Source: a virus (taxonomy: Duplodnaviria > Caudoviricetes). Taken from it: a stretch of DNA of 64,000 nt. Location of the stretch: positions 1 to 64,000 of the IMG/VR virus record IMGVR_UViG_3300029305_001452, one strand, 5' to 3'. Of this stretch, positions 1,280 through 27,300 are shown piece by piece; position 1 is the first letter of the stretch, and every line of letters begins with the position of its first letter. Position numbers and translations under genes: made by a program. The notes beneath the pieces are model-generated. The model was given only the letters and a program-made list of their open reading frames with translations. It searched no databases and was not told the DNA's origin.

Positions 1280-3001
1280 TTAATCTCCATATAATTCCCA
1301 AGTTTCACCATTTCCAATATAGGGAACATACGCTTCATAACTAGAGCCATTACCGATATAAACGACATAAGTATCAAATGTACTATCGTTACCAATTGAA
1401 ACGCCACGAATTCTTGCAGTTGAACTTATAAGTGTATCTCCAGAAACAGTAAGCGTATTACCAGATATAAATTCCTCACCGTTTACATTATGAGCAATAA
1501 CCTTATAGCCATCAATTGCCCCAAATTCAATGGTTAAAACATCTCCATTTTTTACTTTTGCTCCGTTTGAAATAGCTGTTCCATTTTTTAAAACGCTAAT
1601 TATTGAACCAGCTCCAGCAGAAGTGGTAAGCAAAAATTCACTCAAATTCGCAGAAGAAACAATGGTCACATTTCCAGAGACAGTGTGCGTTCTTCCAGAT
1701 GTGAAATTAGAGCCATTAACCTTTAATGAAGACAATTGGTGTCCGTCTGTAGCATTTGCAGTTATGGTTAACACATCTCCATATGTAATAGTTGCTCCGT
1801 TAGATAAGGTTGTAGAGCCTCGTTTAACCGTAATATCTGTGTCTGAGCCAGCAGAAATGGTGAGTGTAAATGTATCAAGTTCAGCACTAACTGTGATAGT
1901 ACGGTTTGAGTTCATAGTCCAAGTGGTCGTATCGGTCTTTGACGAAGATTCATCTATAGCCCATGAACCTCCAGTAGAGCCATCTGCATAATTTCCTGCA
2001 TATCCCGTTAAACGATAACCGGTCGAAGCAGTCGCAGTGGTTGTTGCTTTTGTGCCGTATTCATAAGTTCCGCCGCCAGTAAACGAGGCAACACCAGTGC
2101 CTTTTTTAAGGGTTAATGTATACTTATTTTTCGTAGCAGTAGCTTTAAATGTAGTATTGGCAGTAATAGTAACATTTCCATTACTATGTGATTGCGAAGC
2201 CTTAGTATATCCAGTACTATAACTAAAGCTAACCGAAAGAACAGTTCCGTGGTTCACTTTTGTACCACTAGAAATCGTTGTACTGCCATTCTTAACGGTG
2301 ATACTTGTGCCAGTTCCAGCTGAAATAGTAATCGTATATTGTTTAATTGTTGTTGTTGCGGACACTGTTACATTTCCTTTTACTGTGTGCGTATTGCCAG
2401 ATGTAAATGTGCTACTATTAACCTTTAATGTAGGAGTGTTATAACCAGTTGATGCACTCGCTGAAATAGTTAGTACATCTCCGTAAGTAATAGACGCACC
2501 ATTTGAAAGCGTTGTGCTTCCTCTCTTAACCGATATTGTAGTGCCAGTTCCTTGAGAAATTGACAACTTAAAGGTTCGATTGATTTTTGTCAGTGTAACA
2601 GTCTTAGAATTAGAGGCGCTCCAATATGCGCCACTAACATTTCGTTTATATTCCTTAACCGACGCAGAAATTACAATAGACTTGCTACCGTCTGCATCGT
2701 GGGCAACATTGACTGAACCAAGCGCTCCGCTAACAGTAACCGGCGTATTTAATGCGCCAACATAAACACTATGTGTACCATCATGACTGCTCATGGATAC
2801 AGCCGCAGAACCATTTATAGTTATAGTTCCATCTAAATAGCGCTCACCAGTAATCCAAGCACTTTGAATAACTTCCATTTTCGTAATTGCTACATTGGAA
2901 GTATTCGTTGCGGCGTCATATGTTTCTGAATAGTAAATATTAAGAGTAGCACCATAGCTTGTGTCTTTTAATACTAGAGTGCCAGTTATACCTTGTGCCA
3001 T
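1280..3001 (-). CDS. Ser/Thr-rich virion protein with tandem beta-sandwich (InlB B-repeat/Ig-like) domains, putative adhesin
   Basis: About five ~75-aa repeats (xTLTISAGTGTxITVKxGSTTLSNGAxITYGDVLTI...V.GNVTV); lies in the tail region. Confidence 0.7.
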   Translation of the reverse strand: MAQGITGTLVLKDTSYGATLNIYYSETYDAATNTSNVAITKMEVIQSAWITGERYLDGTITINGSAAVSMSSHDGTHSVYVGALNTPVTVSGALGSVNVAHDADGSKSIVISASVKEYKRNVSGAYWSASNSKTVTLTKINRTFKLSISQGTGTTISVKRGSTTLSNGASITYGDVLTISASASTGYNTPTLKVNSSTFTSGNTHTVKGNVTVSATTTIKQYTITISAGTGTSITVKNGSTTISSGTKVNHGTVLSVSFSYSTGYTKASQSHSNGNVTITANTTFKATATKNKYTLTLKKGTGVASFTGGGTYEYGTKATTTATASTGYRLTGYAGNYADGSTGGSWAIDESSSKTDTTTWTMNSNRTITVSAELDTFTLTISAGSDTDITVKRGSTTLSNGATITYGDVLTITANATDGHQLSSLKVNGSNFTSGRTHTVSGNVTIVSSANLSEFLLTTSAGAGSIISVLKNGTAISNGAKVKNGDVLTIEFGAIDGYKVIAHNVNGEEFISGNTLTVSGDTLISSTARIRGVSIGNDSTFDTYVVYIGNGSSYEAYVPYIGNGETWELYGD

Positions 3002-3234
3002 TAGCCACTCACCTTCTTAAAGAATATCGCACCTCTAGGCGCAGCAGATGGGAGGGAAGAACCATATAAGCTGTCATCTAAAATATTGGACGCAATTTTA
3101 GATTCCATATCTGCAATAATAGCATCTAATCCTCTTCCACTTTCATCACTAACAGCGCTAACTTTAGTTCTTGGGAAAAGAGCTTCTGTCTTTTCCTTAT
3201 CGGAATATAAAGTTTTGACTTTGCCAGCAGACAT
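3001..3234 (-). CDS. Small tail-fibre-associated protein
   Basis: LFPRTKVSAV and YGSSLPSAAPRGAIFFK segments; translationally coupled to neighbours. Confidence 0.55.
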   Translation of the reverse strand: MSAGKVKTLYSDKEKTEALFPRTKVSAVSDESGRGLDAIIADMESKIASNILDDSLYGSSLPSAAPRGAIFFKKVSG

Positions 3235-3362
3235 TACTCTTCACCTCTTTTTAAAATTTCTTTCGCTTGTTCTTCTGTAATAATACATTTAGTTACTGCA
3301 TCATTTACCATTTTTTCAGTCCAAAGACCTTGTTTATGCCATTTCATAATTTTTTCAAACAT
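3234..3362 (-). CDS. XkdX family protein
   Basis: 42 aa MFEKIMKWHKQGLWTEKMVNDAVTKCIITEEQAKEIL, the XkdX pattern; below the ORF-track cutoff. Confidence 0.85.
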   Translation of the reverse strand: MFEKIMKWHKQGLWTEKMVNDAVTKCIITEEQAKEILKRGEE

Positions 3363-3366
3363 ATTA

Positions 3367-3618
3367 TTACACCTCCAATAGAGTATCAGTCATCATAGCA
3401 GTGTATGTTATCTGAGACTCAATTCTATCAAGTTGAGTAGGAGATTCTATTTCAAACTCTCCGTCAACATTAATTTCTCCAATTGCTTCCTTTTCTGCGA
3501 TGGGCAGGTTTGCATCATACTGTGCTTTCGTATCGCAGATAATTTCCTTTTCACTAAAAACCTGTTCGCCATCAGGCTTTTCATAAGCCAAAAATTGATA
3601 TTTGATGATTTTTGCCAT
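3367..3618 (-). CDS. XkdW-like tail fibre assembly protein
   Basis: Between fibre gene and XkdX; C-terminal PTQLDRIESQITYTAMMTDTLLE. Confidence 0.6.
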   Translation of the reverse strand: MAKIIKYQFLAYEKPDGEQVFSEKEIICDTKAQYDANLPIAEKEAIGEINVDGEFEIESPTQLDRIESQITYTAMMTDTLLEV

Positions 3619-3632
3619 AGATGCTCACCCCT

Positions 3633-4487
3633 TTAGTCCGTGGATTTTGTGTACTTTATGGTTACATAGGCAGCATAATTATTCCAAGTTTCGGTGGTCT
3701 TAACAAACACATTCGTAGATGTCGCATAAATGTTAATCGTGCCAATGGAATCGGCATTCCATTGTGTCGGGAAGTAATATCTGCCGGAATGACCCCACAC
3801 CGCCACAAAGTTTTTACTATTGGAAATACCATGAGGGGTTTCAGATTTAGCATTACTGGGCAACATTCCAACGCTGATGCACTTTGCATACACAGGTTTC
3901 CCTTGATAACGCTCCGTGGTTCTGTATTCCACGCCCACTTCCATAGGTGGGTTTTGCCACTCTAATGGCTTCCATGCGCCCGAAAACTTTACTTTGAAAA
4001 TCAACGAGCCTGTCAAGTTGGCAGACCATGCCTTGATGCTACCGTTGTTTTGGGAAGACTTTGATAGAATGCCAAACCAACCATGAGAAGTTGCTGACGG
4101 ATAGCCAGTCCAGTAGACTAGTTTAGTAGTTGCACCACTCATGGCACTATAAACATCCTCTAACAAGGTTGTTAATTCATCATCAGTCTCAACTCTGGCG
4201 CTTTTCAAAGAAATAGCTGCGCCACCATAACCATACCCAGCAGATGCTTTACTATCTTCTAAAGCTTGTAATCCAGATGTTAAATCACTAACCAATGCAT
4301 ACTCATCTGGAGTTCTGCCACCGAAAGTATCTATGTTGATAACTTCTGAATAAATATCTTCGCCGTCTTCTAGTGCATAAACAGGTTCGTCCGCAACTGC
4401 AACAAACTCGTCCGCGTGCATTCCATCTAGGGTATCTGCATCACTGGATCCAAAAGACCCTAAAATTTGCAATTTTTTAGTACTCAA
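3633..4487 (-). CDS. Tail fibre/receptor-binding-like protein
   Basis: DADTLDG motif; WQNPPMEVGVEYRTTERYQGKPVY and C-terminal YTK typical of clostridial phage fibre tips. Confidence 0.65.
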   Translation of the reverse strand: MSTKKLQILGSFGSSDADTLDGMHADEFVAVADEPVYALEDGEDIYSEVINIDTFGGRTPDEYALVSDLTSGLQALEDSKASAGYGYGGAAISLKSARVETDDELTTLLEDVYSAMSGATTKLVYWTGYPSATSHGWFGILSKSSQNNGSIKAWSANLTGSLIFKVKFSGAWKPLEWQNPPMEVGVEYRTTERYQGKPVYAKCISVGMLPSNAKSETPHGISNSKNFVAVWGHSGRYYFPTQWNADSIGTINIYATSTNVFVKTTETWNNYAAYVTIKYTKSTD

Positions 4488-4562
4488 TTAAATCACTTCC
4501 TTTATAAAAATGATCGTTTAATATTTTTAAGCGCTATAAATATAGCACTTTTATTTTTCGTT

Positions 4563-4787
4563 TTAATTTAATTCGTGTGCATCCCATAGTTCTTTTGCTT
4601 TACGTGTTTCTGGACACTTCTTAAATACAAAAACCATGGAATCTTCTCGTTTAGTGCCCGTATAAAGAATATCTAAAAAATATTCTGGACCAAGGTATGA
4701 CAAATAACGCTTTGCCTGTAGCATATTTGGAATATAAATACAATTCGCAGCGTCATATACCTTCTGAGTAATTGGAGACTTTACCAA
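4563..4787 (-). CDS. Small conserved phage protein (DUF5659-like)
   Basis: I.N..QA..Y and MVFVF pattern; GGAGG RBS. Confidence 0.5.
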   Translation of the reverse strand: MVKSPITQKVYDAANCIYIPNMLQAKRYLSYLGPEYFLDILYTGTKREDSMVFVFKKCPETRKAKELWDAHELN

Positions 4788-4810
4788 TTCCTTTTCCTCC
4801 TTTTTTGCAT

Positions 4811-4858
4811 AAAAAAATAAGGAGCTAGGCTTCGTTGTATGAAGTATAGCTCCTTATT
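4811..4858 (-). terminator. Intrinsic terminator
   Basis: AATAAGGAGCTA..TAGCTCCTTATT inverted repeat followed by a T run on the minus strand. Confidence 0.7.
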
Positions 4859-5264
4859 CATTTTCTTGTTTAACTACTTCATGTGTGTGTTTCTTCGCCT
4901 TGCGAGGAGTTACTTCTACAATAACTTCGTCTTCGGCAACTTCTTTAATCTCTGCATCTACAATCGCAACAATTGGTTCTTCTTCAATAATAACTTCCTC
5001 AACTTTAAATAAGTTGGATAAAGTATTTTGCACAGATGGTCTAAAGTTTAGTTTGTTAGATAGATCACACTTTTCAATTGCGGATTGAGCTTCTTCTTTA
5101 GTAAGCATTTCCATATTGAAACGGGTGCAAATATCAAAAATATCTTTGCAATTCTCTGAGTGGAATTCTGCCATCCAAACTGGCTTAGTGCGATCGTTGG
5201 TGCAGGTGGGGCAGTATTTATAAGACTCGCCACATAAATAGCATTCACGTGATTTACGTCCCAT
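4854..5264 (-). CDS. Hypothetical protein with N-terminal Zn finger
   Basis: CYLC..YKYCPTC..HSENC; start moved to MGRKS after an AAGGAG RBS. Confidence 0.7.
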   Translation of the reverse strand: MGRKSRECYLCGESYKYCPTCTNDRTKPVWMAEFHSENCKDIFDICTRFNMEMLTKEEAQSAIEKCDLSNKLNFRPSVQNTLSNLFKVEEVIIEEEPIVAIVDAEIKEVAEDEVIVEVTPRKAKKHTHEVVKQENE

Positions 5265-5289
5265 AGGGTTCACGCTCCTTTCGTAAATA

Positions 5290-5320
5290 AAAAATGAGCT
5301 ACCGTGAGGGTGGCTCATTT
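5290..5320 (-). terminator. Intrinsic terminator after endonuclease gene
   Basis: AAATGAGCTACC/GGTGGCTCATTT hairpin plus T run on the minus strand. Confidence 0.55.
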
Positions 5321-6490
5321 GTTGAGGATCGAGTTAATTTTATTAAGAATTAATTCTTCCATTTTATTGAATTCATAATACCAAATATCTAAACAATGTA
5401 TATTATTTCGTTTTAAATAATCTCTTTTTATTTTATCATGATAAATTTGTTTTTCAAATTTTTCTTTTCCACCAAACATATCAACAGGGTGTTCGTGCTG
5501 CTCACCCATAATTTCTACAATAAGATTGTAATCTGGAAGATAAAAATCAAATGGGAGAGTATATTTATCACGACAATCATCAAAGCGTTTTTGTGGTTCG
5601 TATTTATACTTATATTTTTGGAAAATTGATTCTGCGGATAGTTCACCTTTACTCATAGATTCTTCAATATAACACGATAAACACTGATAACCACTTAAAA
5701 TATTTGTCCAATATGACCAATATGGTTGATGGTTTTCATTAGGACATTTAATTAATGCCTTTAGATATTTACAATCATCGTTGTTTGGCGTTTGTATATC
5801 TAACAACTTATAACCATAATAATGTTCTTCCAAATATTGTTGCATTGTATTTTTATTCCAATATCCATAAGGAACTCTTTTATGTCCATATTTATTTTCA
5901 TAACATCCATTACAAGAAAATCCAAACCTAGATAAATTAGAAATACGAACACTACATTCATAACCACATTCAGGACAAACTACATCAACATATTTTTCAC
6001 TACCAAATGTGTATTTATATGAGTCTTCTTTATATTTTAAATATTTAATTAAATCTGGCCTAGTAGTAGCAATGTCATTAATACCAACCATTACGGTTCT
6101 ATTTGAACAAACAGAACATTGGCTTCCACGCATTAATTTTCTTGGATCCGCACTCCATACATATCCGTCAATAGAACATTTAACTAAAATTCTTGTATCC
6201 ATATTGACATATTCTCCAATGACTTCAATGTTTGGATTAATATTTTTTAAATCTTCTACAAACTTATTATGAGATTTTGTTTGTTTTCTAGATTGCTTTT
6301 CATTACCACATTTCCTGCAACCATGTCCTCTAAGCATATTCTGTGGGAAAGCATCAAATTCAAAATCATGAATCAAACATTTAAAACGAATTTTTGTATT
6401 CATATTAATATATCTGCCAATAACTTTAATATCTGGCAAAACTAAACTTAATTCTTTTTCAAATTCCTCTTGTGTTTTTCTCTTTTTCAT
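5315..6490 (-). CDS. Free-standing homing endonuclease-like protein (Zn-ribbon repeats plus C-terminal Vsr-like/PD-(D/E)xK nuclease)
   Basis: Repeated I.VIG.Y.NM.T.I..KC..G..C..C units; C-terminal SKGE..LPFDFYLPDYNLIVEIMGEQH..D.IK; more AT-rich than the tail tube gene. Confidence 0.8.
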   Translation of the reverse strand: MKKRKTQEEFEKELSLVLPDIKVIGRYINMNTKIRFKCLIHDFEFDAFPQNMLRGHGCRKCGNEKQSRKQTKSHNKFVEDLKNINPNIEVIGEYVNMDTRILVKCSIDGYVWSADPRKLMRGSQCSVCSNRTVMVGINDIATTRPDLIKYLKYKEDSYKYTFGSEKYVDVVCPECGYECSVRISNLSRFGFSCNGCYENKYGHKRVPYGYWNKNTMQQYLEEHYYGYKLLDIQTPNNDDCKYLKALIKCPNENHQPYWSYWTNILSGYQCLSCYIEESMSKGELSAESIFQKYKYKYEPQKRFDDCRDKYTLPFDFYLPDYNLIVEIMGEQHEHPVDMFGGKEKFEKQIYHDKIKRDYLKRNNIHCLDIWYYEFNKMEELILNKINSILNK

Positions 6491-6605
6491 GTGTCCTCAA
6501 CCTCACACTACTAAACTTTCCTCTTTTATAAAACATAAAGAGGGGAGGGAGAGGTTCCTCCCCTTATCAGTTCAAATAGCTAATTTAAACCTACTTTATG
6601 TATAT

Positions 6606-6634
6606 ATTATAACACATTAATTTCGTATTGTCAA
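6606..6634 (-). promoter_or_regulatory. Consensus sigma-A promoter for the endonuclease gene
   Basis: TTGACA-17 nt-TATAAT on the minus strand. Confidence 0.85.
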
Positions 6635-6644
6635 GTGTTATTAA

Positions 6645-7794
6645 TTATTCTGCATCACCAGGAATAATGATGGAGAATAATCTCTTCTCTTTATCACAGT
6701 CGCTAATCTTCAACTAAAGTCGTTAATTTTAGCCAGCACCATTACGTGCATCTTATACTTTCATATAAGGCGAGACTATATCATCACCCAGTTAAACTGG
6801 GGCATACCACTTCGAGCCACTTAGCTCTACGGCTTACGCCTAGTCGTTGAACCTTTTCCTATTCGGAACTTGGCTGCTGATTACCCATTGTTTAAATGTT
6901 TAGGATTTAACCTTGCATCATCCAATTAATTTTTTATACTTTCGTAGCATTCGCACTTAAGCATTTTTCATCTTTATGCTGTAGCTTAATTGGCTTTAGG
7001 GGTTTCCAGCAATTCAATATGTTTATCAAAACAGCTTATGCTGCTAGGGATCTATATTTCAAATCTTGCTGTGCTTTCATAGAGAAGGGATGGGTGCCAT
7101 CGGTAGCAATGCTCCAGTCGAAGTCGGGGCTTAGCTTAGCGTTGTTGAAGATAACATAAGCGTAAACTAGGTTGGTCTGATCACAAACGTCACAACCTAG
7201 TACTTCCATAACGAACTTGCAGCCAACAGGGAAGTTCTTAGCAGAGTTGACAACCTCAACAGCGTTTTCGGTTTCATACTCATACATAACGAACATCTCG
7301 GTACCAACCTTTACATCGGTGGGTAGAGAAATAGTTCTATCAGCGATAGAGAAAGCTTCTGCGGTAGCAGCATCTTCCTTACCATACTTAACACCAAAGG
7401 TGCTATCGTCATTTAGAGCATAGATCTCCTTAGGAGCAGCAACGGGAGTGTGCTTTAGGTCATACTTGCCGCCCTCAGCAACGGTGAAGCTCTCCATAGC
7501 AGGAGCAACAATCTTAGAACCAGCAGAAGCAACCTTCTTCTCAGTACCTAGCTGAGTAGCCATTAGGTTCATGTCGAATAGAGCGTTCTCAGCAGAGAAT
7601 TCTGCAGACTTAGCTCTGTAGAAAGTAGCAATAGGAGTACCCATTGCGTCAACAGCATCAGTAGACTCAGAAGCACAGTTTAGAGAAGCGTTCTGGATCT
7701 GGTTGATGGAGAATAGAACGGAATCATCCTTCTGGGATAGAGCAACACCACGGACAATTCTATCAATAACAAAGTTGTTTAAATCGAAAGCCAT
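6645..7794 (-). CDS. Major tail tube protein (SPbeta YomU position), spliced join(7794..7062,6700..6645), 262 aa
   Basis: Follows head-tail genes; highly expressed codon pattern; removing the intron restores ..MKAQQD-Y-CDKEKRLFSIIIPGDAE*. Confidence 0.8.
6701..7061 (-). ncRNA. Group I intron (361 nt, no ORF) in tail tube gene
   Basis: Exon ends in U and intron ends in G; core elements in order: AAUUGCUGGAAA (P), AAUCAGCAG (Q), UUCAACGACUA (R), GAUAUAGUC (S); excision restores the frame. Confidence 0.92.
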
Positions 7795-24300: not shown

Positions 24301-27300
24301 TCATTTCACCTCCAGCTCTAACACTTTTCATAGTAAATTTAAACCCGCCGTAACTAAATTCTCCATTTACATCTTGTTCGGGATAAGTATAACAACCAGA
24401 CTTTGCAATAAGTTTTTCCACAATCACATCTCCACATAAGTTCCATACAATACTAACATCGATACCATCTTTATAACAAATATCAAGCAGCATTTCACAT
24501 AAAATATATTTATTTTGACAAATTGAGAAACAAGTTTCCTCTAACTCTGCATTAAGTTTAACAATCTGATCAGCAGCGCTCTCTTCTTCATCTTCATGCT
24601 CTACGAATTTTTTCTTGTTAATCTCACGTTTCTTCTGTCTATACGCTTCACACTTAAGCTTTATAAGCTCATAATCCTCTTGTGCATACTCAAGACAACT
24701 TTTATAAATTTCATAGTCGAAATTAACATTTTCAAACATGTCAACACCGTCGAATACATCTTCAACGGCCCAACAAATACGATTCATAGTAGAGGGTGAG
24801 ACATCAAGAGGTAGGCGTTTTTTATAAAAATCCAAGATTTTTTGCTCATTTTCTGGCAAATTACCATCATTTTTAAGTAAATCTCGTATATTTTTACCAG
24901 TTATACTTTGAATATGATCATCTGTATCACGAACAAATGCATCGTATTCTTGCTTTAAAGTGGTGTAGTTATAGCCAAAAAAGTATGGTTTTTTGAATGC
25001 ACATAGCTGTTGATTTAGTGTTTTTTGTTCTATAATTTCAGCAGAATCGTCATTTCTTACTATATTTTCTTTAAAAATATACCAACTTTTAGGCATCGGG
25101 TTGGGTAAAATTCCCTTAGCTTTCCTTTATACCCTCGGTTTCCCGATATTTTAGTAGGGGAGTAGACTATATCTTCAACTCATAACGAGTTGTGTGGCAC
25201 TTCCAAATGAGGAGTTTCACCTCAAATGTACTTCCTTACGGAATAGTCGTTTGACGTTCTTGCTTACGCAAGCTTCGCACTGGATTAACATATGTGTGTT
25301 TATTTTATGGAACTTGTTTCCATCTTTTATAATTGCAAATATCATTAATGCATTGAGGAGTAACGTTATATTTTCTTGAAATTTCAGAATAGTTGAAACC
25401 ATCTCTATGTAATTTTCTAATTTCTACAACATCATCTACACAAAGCTTCTTAGGATTCTTCTCATAATATTTTTGTTGAGCCTGTTGTATGTTTTTACGA
25501 CCATCTTCACTCATTGGTGCATACTTCATTCCAGTATGAGTTTCGGACATCTTTGCTCTTGTCTCATCTGATGCTTTTCTTCCTATGCCGTTAATTCTAT
25601 TTTTCTCACCTATTTTTCTTTTTGTCTCATCGGATAAATGTTTTCCAAGGTTATATCCTTCATCTCCGCCGTCGTGAATATTATAAGCAAGTCCCATATC
25701 TTTATATAATTTAATATAATATTTTTCTCGATCACTTAATTCACCAACGCTGCAATCTTCAATAACTATAAACTCGAAATTTTCTTGTTTATATTTATCC
25801 CATGCACTTTGTAAATGCGGATTATCGTGTTTACCATTGTTTAATAAAGAACGATGCGAATCCCATCTATCTCCAAAATTCATTCCAGTTTTACCAACAT
25901 AAATTTTACCATTAACTAAATTTCTAATACCATAAATACCGATTCTAGAATAAATATTATCTTCACGTTTAACCATATTACTCCTCCTTTCTTAATTAAT
26001 TTTGTATTGTTAACACACACTTAGTTTTTCCCAGTTAGCTAACTCGTTAACACTCATTTCCTAATGCTACTTTACGTCGAGTTAACACCCTATATTTATA
26101 GGTTCACCACATTATTCGATGCATGTCACCATGCAAAGCGACTGTAATTCAATCGATTTCTTCCTGTTGAAGAGCTTGCCCGCACTGAGTTCTATATCTT
26201 AAAATCTCATATTCACGACTTCCTGGCTCATAATTTGACATTAAAGAAGTGATTGCTGTGATTCTGTTAGTTATACTACCAATCTTACTACCAAATCCAT
26301 TCTTATTTGCTTTAATTACATCTGCCTCAGTAACCACTTTCCTCGAAGCATTGTACTGAATGCAGTTTAGTGCAGGCAAATTCTTCTGGTTCTTAAGTAG
26401 TGGAGCGTTGTCAGTAGTGAAGAGTAGATCTCCGTCAAAATCAAAACCATTAAGAGCCATTGGCATTGTATCCCAAGCATTCACAACAGCCACTGTATCC
26501 ATATATTTAAACCAGTATTCTGCTTTATCATCATAGCAGATATCCTGAGAAACCAACGAATGTTCGTTAGACATTGGTGCTCTAGCACACATTACACGCT
26601 TCACACCACAATCTTTCCAGTATTTACTGTAAATTTCGCCAGCTTTTAGTAATCCATGCACCTCTAAACCAAACATACTCTCACATAGAGCATATATGTC
26701 TCCAGAAATAATTTGGAAGTTACCACTTACATCAAGCACACCAATCTTGGCCTCTCTAATACGTTTGTTAATCATTTTCTTAATTCTATTGCGAATATAT
26801 GGGTCATTTATAGTCTCTGAATTAGCCATAAGCGCTCTTGCAGCAGCATCCACATACTGAATATTCTCTGCTTTTAAGTTCTTACCACATAAATACACAA
26901 TACTTTTTCTAGGATCTAAGCCAATAGTATCCTTAATTTCATTCACAGTAGGAGAGATAAGCTCCTGAATATCTTCGTCAGACAAGTTTAAAGACTGTAT
27001 AAACTGGTAATTTAACTGTCTTACGGTATCAACTTCATGCGGTGCGGTCTTAGCAACTCTAATTGTATACTTATTTTCTAGACACTTATTATAATAATCT
27101 TCCCATGAATCATAACAAGCCCAAAGTTTCAACTGGCTCTCAGTAATAATTAGTTCGGAATCTCTAATATCTCTCTGTTGTCCCCAAATATCAGTAATTA
27201 AATACTTTTCAGGGCAATCATCGGAAGCACCAACAACTTCTTCTGCAAACTTTATGTAGTCAAAAGTAAATGTCATACCTTTAGTCCATGCACAACGAAG

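Follow-up and report, generated by a model that had tools for sequence, protein, structure and literature searches.

Phage group I introns of subgroup IA2, such as those of T4 td, nrdB and nrdD and of the polymerase genes of SPO1 and the Bastillevirinae, share a P3-P9 core with P7.1 and P7.2 and an early in-frame stop codon (PMC3984707, PMC11878797). They are inserted where an essential gene is highly conserved, mostly in a gene of DNA or nucleotide metabolism, and often carry an endonuclease open reading frame (ORF) of their own. There are precedents for group I introns in the structural genes of phages, and the tail tube gene is a documented exception to that tendency: three self-splicing group I introns, with exon skipping, interrupt orf142 of Staphylococcus phage Twort, which encodes a tail tube protein (Landthaler and Shub 1999, cited in PMC11878797). 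Here we analyze a 64,000-nt stretch of DNA, in full referred to as the window, from the IMG/VR virus record IMGVR_UViG_3300029305_001452, in which a YomU-type major tail tube gene is interrupted near its 3' end by a group I intron without an ORF (positions 7061 to 6701) that is very probably splicing-competent. The record comprises 139,972 bases and is estimated to be 87% complete; the phage is large, uncultivated and SPbeta-like. All features of the tube gene region are on the minus strand, and their coordinates are collected in the table below.

The two cases are alike in that each has small ORF-less introns of the phage IA type in its major tail tube gene, the phage in both being large and of the Firmicutes type, and relatives of the window gene also resemble orf142 in having several introns per gene and short internal exons. 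They differ in that Twort has a myovirus tube, whereas the window encodes a YomU/SPbeta siphovirus-like tube and has one intron; in addition, orf142 contains three introns, whereas relatives of the window gene have up to five or six, with 21-nt micro-exons. The features listed above for phage IA2 introns, i.e., the core, P7.1 and P7.2, the early stop and the position in a conserved part of an essential gene, recur in the window intron, but the latter lacks an ORF and its host gene is a structural one. The original prediction, made from the letters of this stretch, had set its location against the DNA-metabolism genes in which most phage introns are found. As a tendency this holds, but the novelty of the location was overstated given the Twort precedent, and the intron is no new kind of element.

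Two other kinds of described system are relevant. The pairs F-CphI/psbA of cyanophage S-PM2 and mobE/I-TevIII of T4 resemble the present locus in that an intron with no ORF, or a defunct one, lies beside a free-standing endonuclease gene (PMC6083498, PMC2790892, PMC3984707), but there the target of the enzyme has been mapped to the intron site, whereas here the co-occurrence of the two elements fails a phylogeny-controlled test. Group B IStrons (BcISt1; CbISt3/4) have cores that are the closest sequence relatives from isolated phages, and ORF-less IStron derivatives are known; the group is characterized by insertion after a GG-ending site, by a CGG 3' end and by an IS607/IS605 transposase component or an inverted-repeat remnant of one, and the nearest sequence relatives are classed as IA2 (PMC4227781). 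The window intron differs from them in having no transposase, in following a U, and in lacking the GG target and the CGG end. Membership of group B was considered and rejected, since the end motifs are wrong and there is no OrfB in the record.

RF00028, the Rfam group I intron family, matched positions 7071 to 6752 over the full model (1-253) with 74.9 bits (cmscan; expect value, E, 3.4e-17), well placed against the curated gathering threshold of 50 bits. The E value was 1.8e-20 in a search of the whole record, and the match was the sole Rfam hit in the window, hits with E of up to 0.1 included. Exon 1 ends GAT-T, and U7062 pairs with G7052 in P1 in the cmscan alignment, which places the 5' splice site after U7062. 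The last base of the intron, G6701, is the omega G, and exon 2 opens with AC followed by TGT GAT. The intron lies in phase 1 of the Tyr245 codon, 18 codons before the end of the gene, and its excision gives a 262-amino acid (aa) protein with the C-terminus ...QQDYCDKEKRLFSIIIPGDAE, in which the last part, from 6698 to 6645, is translated as CDKEKRLFSIIIPGDAE*. The predicted ligated junction is ...CAGCAAGATT joined to ACTGTGATAAAG, and the boundary pair 7062/6700 is the only one that gives the GAT TAC TGT reading of an uninterrupted allele. The same bases had been proposed in the original prediction, together with the P, Q, R and S elements, the exon-terminal U and the omega G, all of which we located. 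Its 252-aa ORF ending LKYRSLAA is also present: the ORF list has an ORF at 7036 to 7794 that ends ...KAQQDLKYRSLAA. Within the intron there was no homing endonuclease ORF, the longest sense-strand ORF being 31 aa with a TTG start. By score, P1 U•G pair, omega G and covarying P3-P8 with P7, this is an RF00028 group I intron in computational terms.

Intron-less homologues agree with these boundaries. Among 5.8 billion proteins searched there were 1,957 homologues, and C-termini were compared in the best 120 clusters. In 57 of these the C-terminus was uninterrupted, most proteins being 260-262 aa long and ending ...KAQQDYCDKEKRLFSIIIPGD(A/E)E, so that the YCDK...LF end expected from the original prediction is indeed the one found in homologues. 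The spliced length of 262 aa is that of the uninterrupted homologues, and one of them (P0053) has exactly the 18 predicted C-terminal residues. At the DNA level, the uninterrupted related locus L001 has cag gac tac tgc gac aag here, and uninterrupted DNA is also present in L053, L055 and L056; intron-less alleles 95% identical to the window protein exist (P0005 and P0008). Residues Y245, C246, D247, K250 and L252 of exon 2 are invariant in homologues down to 47% identity. The agreement of the C-terminus with the homologues is far beyond chance. A further 47 of the 120 clusters end like the window ORF (...QQD-L[KN]xRSLAA), i.e., by read-through into an intron at the same position (site A), and 14 end ...YCDKEKRL-ELIAA or similar, by read-through into an intron that lies 21 nt beyond site A (site B). 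Automated annotation does miss the true protein, as had been anticipated, with the site-A clusters deposited as read-through truncations. The tube protein of the window phage and about half of its public homologues are thus deposited truncated or fragmented, and the true 262-aa tube protein can now be stated exactly.

The structure of the intron is conserved and covarying. In P1, the cmscan alignment gives the pairs G7065-C7049, A7064-U7050, U7063-A7051, U7062•G7052, U7061-A7053 and G7060-U7054. An RNAalifold alignment of 12 related introns of one family, from four insertion sites in the tube gene, yielded 68 consensus pairs, and 47 of these 68 had compensatory double changes, which occurred in P2, P3, P4, P5 and its extension, P6, P7.1, P7.2, P8, P9 and P9.1/9.2. 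P7 shows double changes: its strands are GACUA/UAGUC in the window but GGUCA/UGACC in L021 and GGCUA/UAGCC in L028. Because the extra helices P7.1 and P7.2 separate the 5' strand of P7 from the 3' strand of P3, we assign the intron by its predicted architecture to subgroup IA. The evidence that we find most telling for a maintained ribozyme is the covariation between exon and guide in P1. Among site-A alleles, the exon end GAUU faces the guide GAUC in the window, GCUU faces GAGC in L020, GGAUU faces GAUCC in L030, and GGAGU faces GCUCC in L051. Changes of the protein codon (Asp to Ala or Glu) are mirrored in the intron guide, while the U•G pair is retained.

Table. Features of the tail tube gene region, in window coordinates
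Feature	Position	Strand	Details
Exon 1 of the YomU-type tail tube gene	7062..7794	-	Codons 1-244 plus U, base 1 of the Tyr245 codon
Group I intron without ORF, 361 nt, predicted subgroup IA by architecture	6701..7061	-	Located by RF00028 and intron-less alleles
Exon 2	6645..6700	-	Bases 2 and 3 of the Tyr245 codon, then 17 codons (CDKEKRLFSIIIPGDAE) and TAA
P1	7049..7065	-	Exon GAUU and intron UG (7065-7060) with internal guide UAGAUC (7054-7049)
P2 hairpin	7030..7045	-	An in-frame UAA in the loop (7038-7036) terminates the 252-aa read-through product
Catalytic core	6752..7021	-	cmscan and RNAalifold (12 related introns), alignment columns mapped to coordinates
P3	7021-7016/6808-6803	-	
P4	7011-7006/6880-6875	-	
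P5 with extension of about 110 nt, and P6	within 6752..7021	-	
P7	6845-6841/6778-6774	-	GACUA/UAGUC
P7.1	6840-6831	-	Compensatory changes, alignment columns 266-280
P7.2	6827-6814	-	Compensatory changes, alignment columns 284-304
P8	6801-6787	-	
P9	6769-6752	-	GAAA loop
3' peripheral hairpins P9.1/P9.2 and terminal guanosine G6701	6701..6751	-	
P, Q, R and S elements	7014-7003, 6882-6872, 6852-6841, 6785-6774	-	
Promoter-like site	6606..6634	-	Perfect TTGACA-17-TATAAT with extended TG, just past the tube gene stop
Terminator-like GC hairpin and T run	6541..6564	-	Within about 40 nt of the promoter-like site
Free-standing homing-endonuclease-like gene, 391 aa	5315..6490	-	Starts 155 nt after exon 2

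Exon 2 is also under purifying selection in intron carriers. Behind site-A introns (seven distinct alleles) there were 113 synonymous compared with 34 non-synonymous codon differences, which argues that exon 2 is translated in frame and, hence, that splicing would be needed. Tail assembly may reasonably be expected to depend on splicing, as had been suggested originally, since exon 2 holds the five invariant residues; the C-terminal 18 residues would then be required for function.

Several lines of evidence bear on the identity of the host gene. The window protein itself and all 120 listed homologues belong to PF27173 (YomU_Tube) according to precomputed Pfam assignments, from which the name is taken, the local Pfam library having no PF27173 model. 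The protein also matched phrog_2729 (virion structural protein) in PHROG with an E of 5e-23. Precomputed Pfam assignments for adjoining genes in related loci were YomW, YonB and YonD_N, which together with YomU_Tube make up the structural module of Bacillus phage SPbeta. From 27 uninterrupted homologues, an AlphaFold2 model was built (mean predicted local distance difference test score, pLDDT, 71.5; predicted template modeling score, pTM, 0.48). Its best Foldseek matches were the tail tube proteins 8xkn_B and 8ygm_A (the latter from phage SPR; E 1.8e-10; template modeling score, TM, 0.52), followed by 9jgh (E to 2e-9) and by major tail proteins from phages Chi and YSD1 (to E 5e-9), with TM of about 0.5. 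A profile search gave a weak match to the tail tube chain 8k98_A (E 0.014), and no match to the tube protein was obtained by tblastn in 50,697 records of isolated phages. Judged by its sequence and modeled fold, the host gene is the major tail tube gene, of the YomU family, so that this label of the original prediction is right on the grounds of Pfam family, SPbeta-like neighbors and fold match. A tailed phage cannot do without its major tail tube protein.

In the mechanism that we propose, the transcript would fold such that the end of the 5' exon, GAUU, pairs with the guide GAUC in P1, the U7062•G7052 pair marking the cut. An external guanosine would attack after U7062, and the freed exon end would then attack after G6701, the ligated mRNA encoding the 262-aa tube protein. 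Ribosomes on unspliced RNA would halt at the UAA in the P2 loop, upstream of P3 and the catalytic core, and would release the 252-aa product, which is probably non-functional. Stop codons placed in frame soon after the 5' splice site are common and keep ribosomes off the core (PMC3984707).

We next consider relatives of the tube gene, for which 61 loci were compared (50 from IMG/VR and 11 from ENA/Logan). There were 22 RF00028 hits above threshold in 16 loci, counts that are lower bounds, since a clearly homologous site-B intron in L002 was missed at the gathering threshold. Spliced alignment of all loci placed introns at about ten sites in the 789-nt tube gene: after about codon 11 (with a GIY-YIG ORF) and after reference nt ~155-160, 222, 606, 627, 637, 684/685, 692, 733 (site A) and 754 (site B). 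The instances were heavily clustered in the last 185 nt of the gene. Locus L051 has six intervening sequences (1822-5673) and L043 has five (2771-6275); in both, the first intron carries a GIY-YIG endonuclease ORF and the others have none. In L020, L028 and L043, a micro-exon of 21 nt separates the introns at sites A and B. In every locus interrupted toward the 3' end, splicing at the inferred junctions gave an intact conserved C-terminus.

The introns cluster by site, and each site thus has a lineage of its own: core identity was 79-90% among site-B introns and 71-87% among site-A introns, but 51-73% between sites. Their distribution is patchy. On a gene tree built from the intron-free middle of the protein (62 rows), at least nine changes of occupancy were needed for site A and nine for site B, which indicates frequent gain and loss. 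For introns at reference nt 155, 684/685 and 692, no boundary combined an exon-final U with an intron-final G. In the lineage at nt 684/685 (L027, L028, L029, L043, L047, L048 and L051; e.g., L028:4676-5073), a terminal G is compatible with just one in-frame solution, in which the cut follows a G (..UGGAG/U..) and the intron ends GG. Splicing after an exon-final G with a GG-ending intron has been demonstrated experimentally for group B IStrons such as BcISt1 (PMC4227781). Locus L001, in which the tube gene is uninterrupted, has a group I intron at 2795-3102 (RF00028, 92.5 bits) and a LAGLIDADG-type ORF at 3229-4095, which split a 360-aa structural gene upstream of YomW; introns thus seem to invade several virion genes in this phage group.

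The gene downstream of exon 2 in the window encodes a protein that matched phrog_559 (HNH endonuclease, 3.3e-82), phrog_9084 (homing endonuclease, 5e-30) and phrog_7140 (intron encoded nuclease) in PHROGs. It has N-terminal treble-clef zinc fingers (Pfam DUF4379 and CapR) and a C-terminal nuclease region. A search of the whole protein against PDB sequences gave chance hits only, and one of the C-terminal 124 aa against Pfam gave nothing, even at E of up to 5; these searches being uninformative, its endonuclease class is taken solely from the PHROG labels. From the motif FDFYLP...VEIMGEQH we suspect a Vsr/PD-(D/E)xK-like fold. In related loci, the slot between the tube gene and a conserved zinc-ribbon neighbor was occupied by this class of endonuclease in 29 of 57 scorable cases, by a GIY-YIG/NUMOD3 enzyme in seven, and by another HNH-like ORF in two. 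Additional free-standing endonuclease-like genes (GIY-YIG; LAGLIDADG/helix-turn-helix) lie directly upstream of the tube gene or nearby (L056:2135-2992, L053:2801-3796 and L058:1785-2591), and the tail module is thus densely populated by homing-endonuclease genes. A sequence similar to the promoter-like site past the tube gene stop also trails the tube gene in loci that have no endonuclease gene (L001 and L002). In raw counts, ~19 of 34 loci with the endonuclease carry an intron in the 3' region, compared with 3 of 14 without it; this link was dropped after an independent-pairs test.

We put at about 0.93 the probability that the segment from 7061 to 6701 in this YomU-type tube gene is a true group I intron of subgroup IA that lacks an ORF and is able to splice, and that it represents one site-specific lineage. 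Several results weigh against this assignment. An exact search for the spliced junction of the window in JGI (Joint Genome Institute) metagenome contigs gave 0 hits; the minimum free energy fold of the single sequence was just modestly better than those of shuffled sequences (z -2.1); the C-terminus of the AlphaFold2 model had low confidence (pLDDT 37-68), and the model does not settle the structural role of the 18 residues; and manual inspection of 7061-7053 against the start of exon 2, ACUGUG, for a P10 helix gave three or fewer contiguous pairs, none of them convincing. In many phage introns, P10 is a weak helix or is missing. A gene in which splicing has been lost, with the 252-aa read-through as the working tube protein or with no working product at all, would be in keeping with the truncated ORF that gene callers report and with the 47 of 120 top clusters that look alike. 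However, the full-length model match, the P1 covariation and the compensatory changes indicate that the ribozyme has been maintained, exon 2 is under purifying selection in carriers, and truncation would strip five invariant residues from an essential major tail tube protein, so that we regard loss of splicing as extremely improbable. Another reading is regulated dual output, in which incomplete splicing would deliberately supply 262-aa and 252-aa tube proteins with distinct roles. The in-frame stop eight codons into the intron does define a second product, and alternative products of group I splicing are described for Twort orf142 and Bastillevirinae polymerase genes (PMC11878797). Yet the intron-less form is the largest single class (57 of the 120 nearest clusters, some 95% identical), which argues that the short form is dispensable, and an early in-frame stop is commonplace and shields the core (PMC3984707). 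Moreover, the read-through peptide tracks constraints on RNA rather than protein: it varies just at residues 2-3 (LK[YFH], LN[YFDTC], LEY), which correspond to the P1 stem and loop, whereas its conserved part, RSLA[AV], corresponds to the guide and P2. This pattern suggests RNA constraint, with no sign of a selected protein isoform. Nothing supports the functional second C-terminal isoform that the original prediction had envisaged from unspliced RNA, the conservation of the peptide being explained by RNA pairing, and we consider dual output very unlikely.

How such an intron would move is a separate question, and the answers below would add to, or account for the origin of, a splicing-competent intron. 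In collaborative (trans) homing, the downstream endonuclease would cut intron-less alleles near the insertion site, the intron would protect against cutting, and both elements would be co-converted. The ORF-less intron does adjoin an endonuclease-like gene, as in the precedents F-CphI/psbA of cyanophage S-PM2 and mobE/I-TevIII of T4 (PMC3984707, PMC2790892, PMC6083498), and introns are concentrated in the last 185 nt of the gene, beside the landing site of the endonuclease. In the nearest clade, the endonuclease is present in all five site-A carriers (the window and L058-L061) and absent from the four nearest distinct intron-less alleles (L001, L053/54, L055 and L056/57). On the other hand, nine loci have the endonuclease gene without an intron, L038, L040 and L049 have an intron without the endonuclease, as does L037 (intron at nt 155), and in yet other loci the slot is taken by a GIY-YIG gene or by an HNH gene of another type. 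The independent-pairs test on the gene tree was not significant (median p 1), elements 200 bp apart are linked by descent in any case, and the cut site of the enzyme is itself only hypothetical; collaborative homing is a reasonable hypothesis, but less likely than not. Still more tentatively, the 3' end of the tube gene might be a battleground of selfish elements, with the intron and endonuclease of the window as a working collaborative-homing unit. Free-standing endonucleases of at least three kinds would land just downstream of the tube gene, and one family of ORF-less introns would have diversified its guides to occupy about ten sites, shielding the genome and hitch-hiking with the endonuclease gene; we hold this to be unlikely. 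A different origin would make the intron a small IStron derivative that has lost its transposase and is moved by one in trans, an IStron being a group I intron fused to an IS605/IS607 transposon. The best DNA matches of its core in isolated phages are indeed IStron-type ribozymes (75-77% over ~267 nt), in Clostridium phage c-st and D-1873 elements (CbISt3/4, PMC4227781) and in an insert in the portal gene of Bacillus phage LY2; the sister lineage at nt 684/685 seemingly splices after G and ends GG, as group B IStrons do; and there is an AU-rich imperfect inverted repeat in the 3' tail of the intron. Against this, the window intron follows U (GAUU) and ends AGCG, which is not the group B pattern (PMC4227781), the phage record (87% complete) has no OrfB-type transposase, all ORFs in or beside related introns are homing endonucleases, and clustering by insertion site fits site-specific homing better than repeated transposition. 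We consider an IStron origin to be improbable.

The population-level hotspot is of more interest than the single intron of the window. It offers a natural series comprising about ten sites with a lineage at each, visible P1 covariation, micro-exons and three classes of neighboring endonuclease. Such a series would lend itself to studying the spread of ORF-less group I introns through phage populations, and the way in which introns that lie close together fold and are spliced with no exon being skipped.

Two further observations were made on sequences outside the tube gene. In Bacillus phage vB_BceH_LY2 (Bastillevirinae; L062), an unannotated ribozyme core at 112570-112839 of the record is 77% identical to the window intron, and the portal gene is annotated in two pieces around this core and two "transposase" ORFs; the insert looks like an unannotated IStron. 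In the window itself, a weak partial match to RF00028 (22.3 bits, below the cut-off) lies at 25143-25348 on the minus strand, beside an ORF at 25305..25976, and may represent a second intron in the record, mostly missed by the filters of Rfam.

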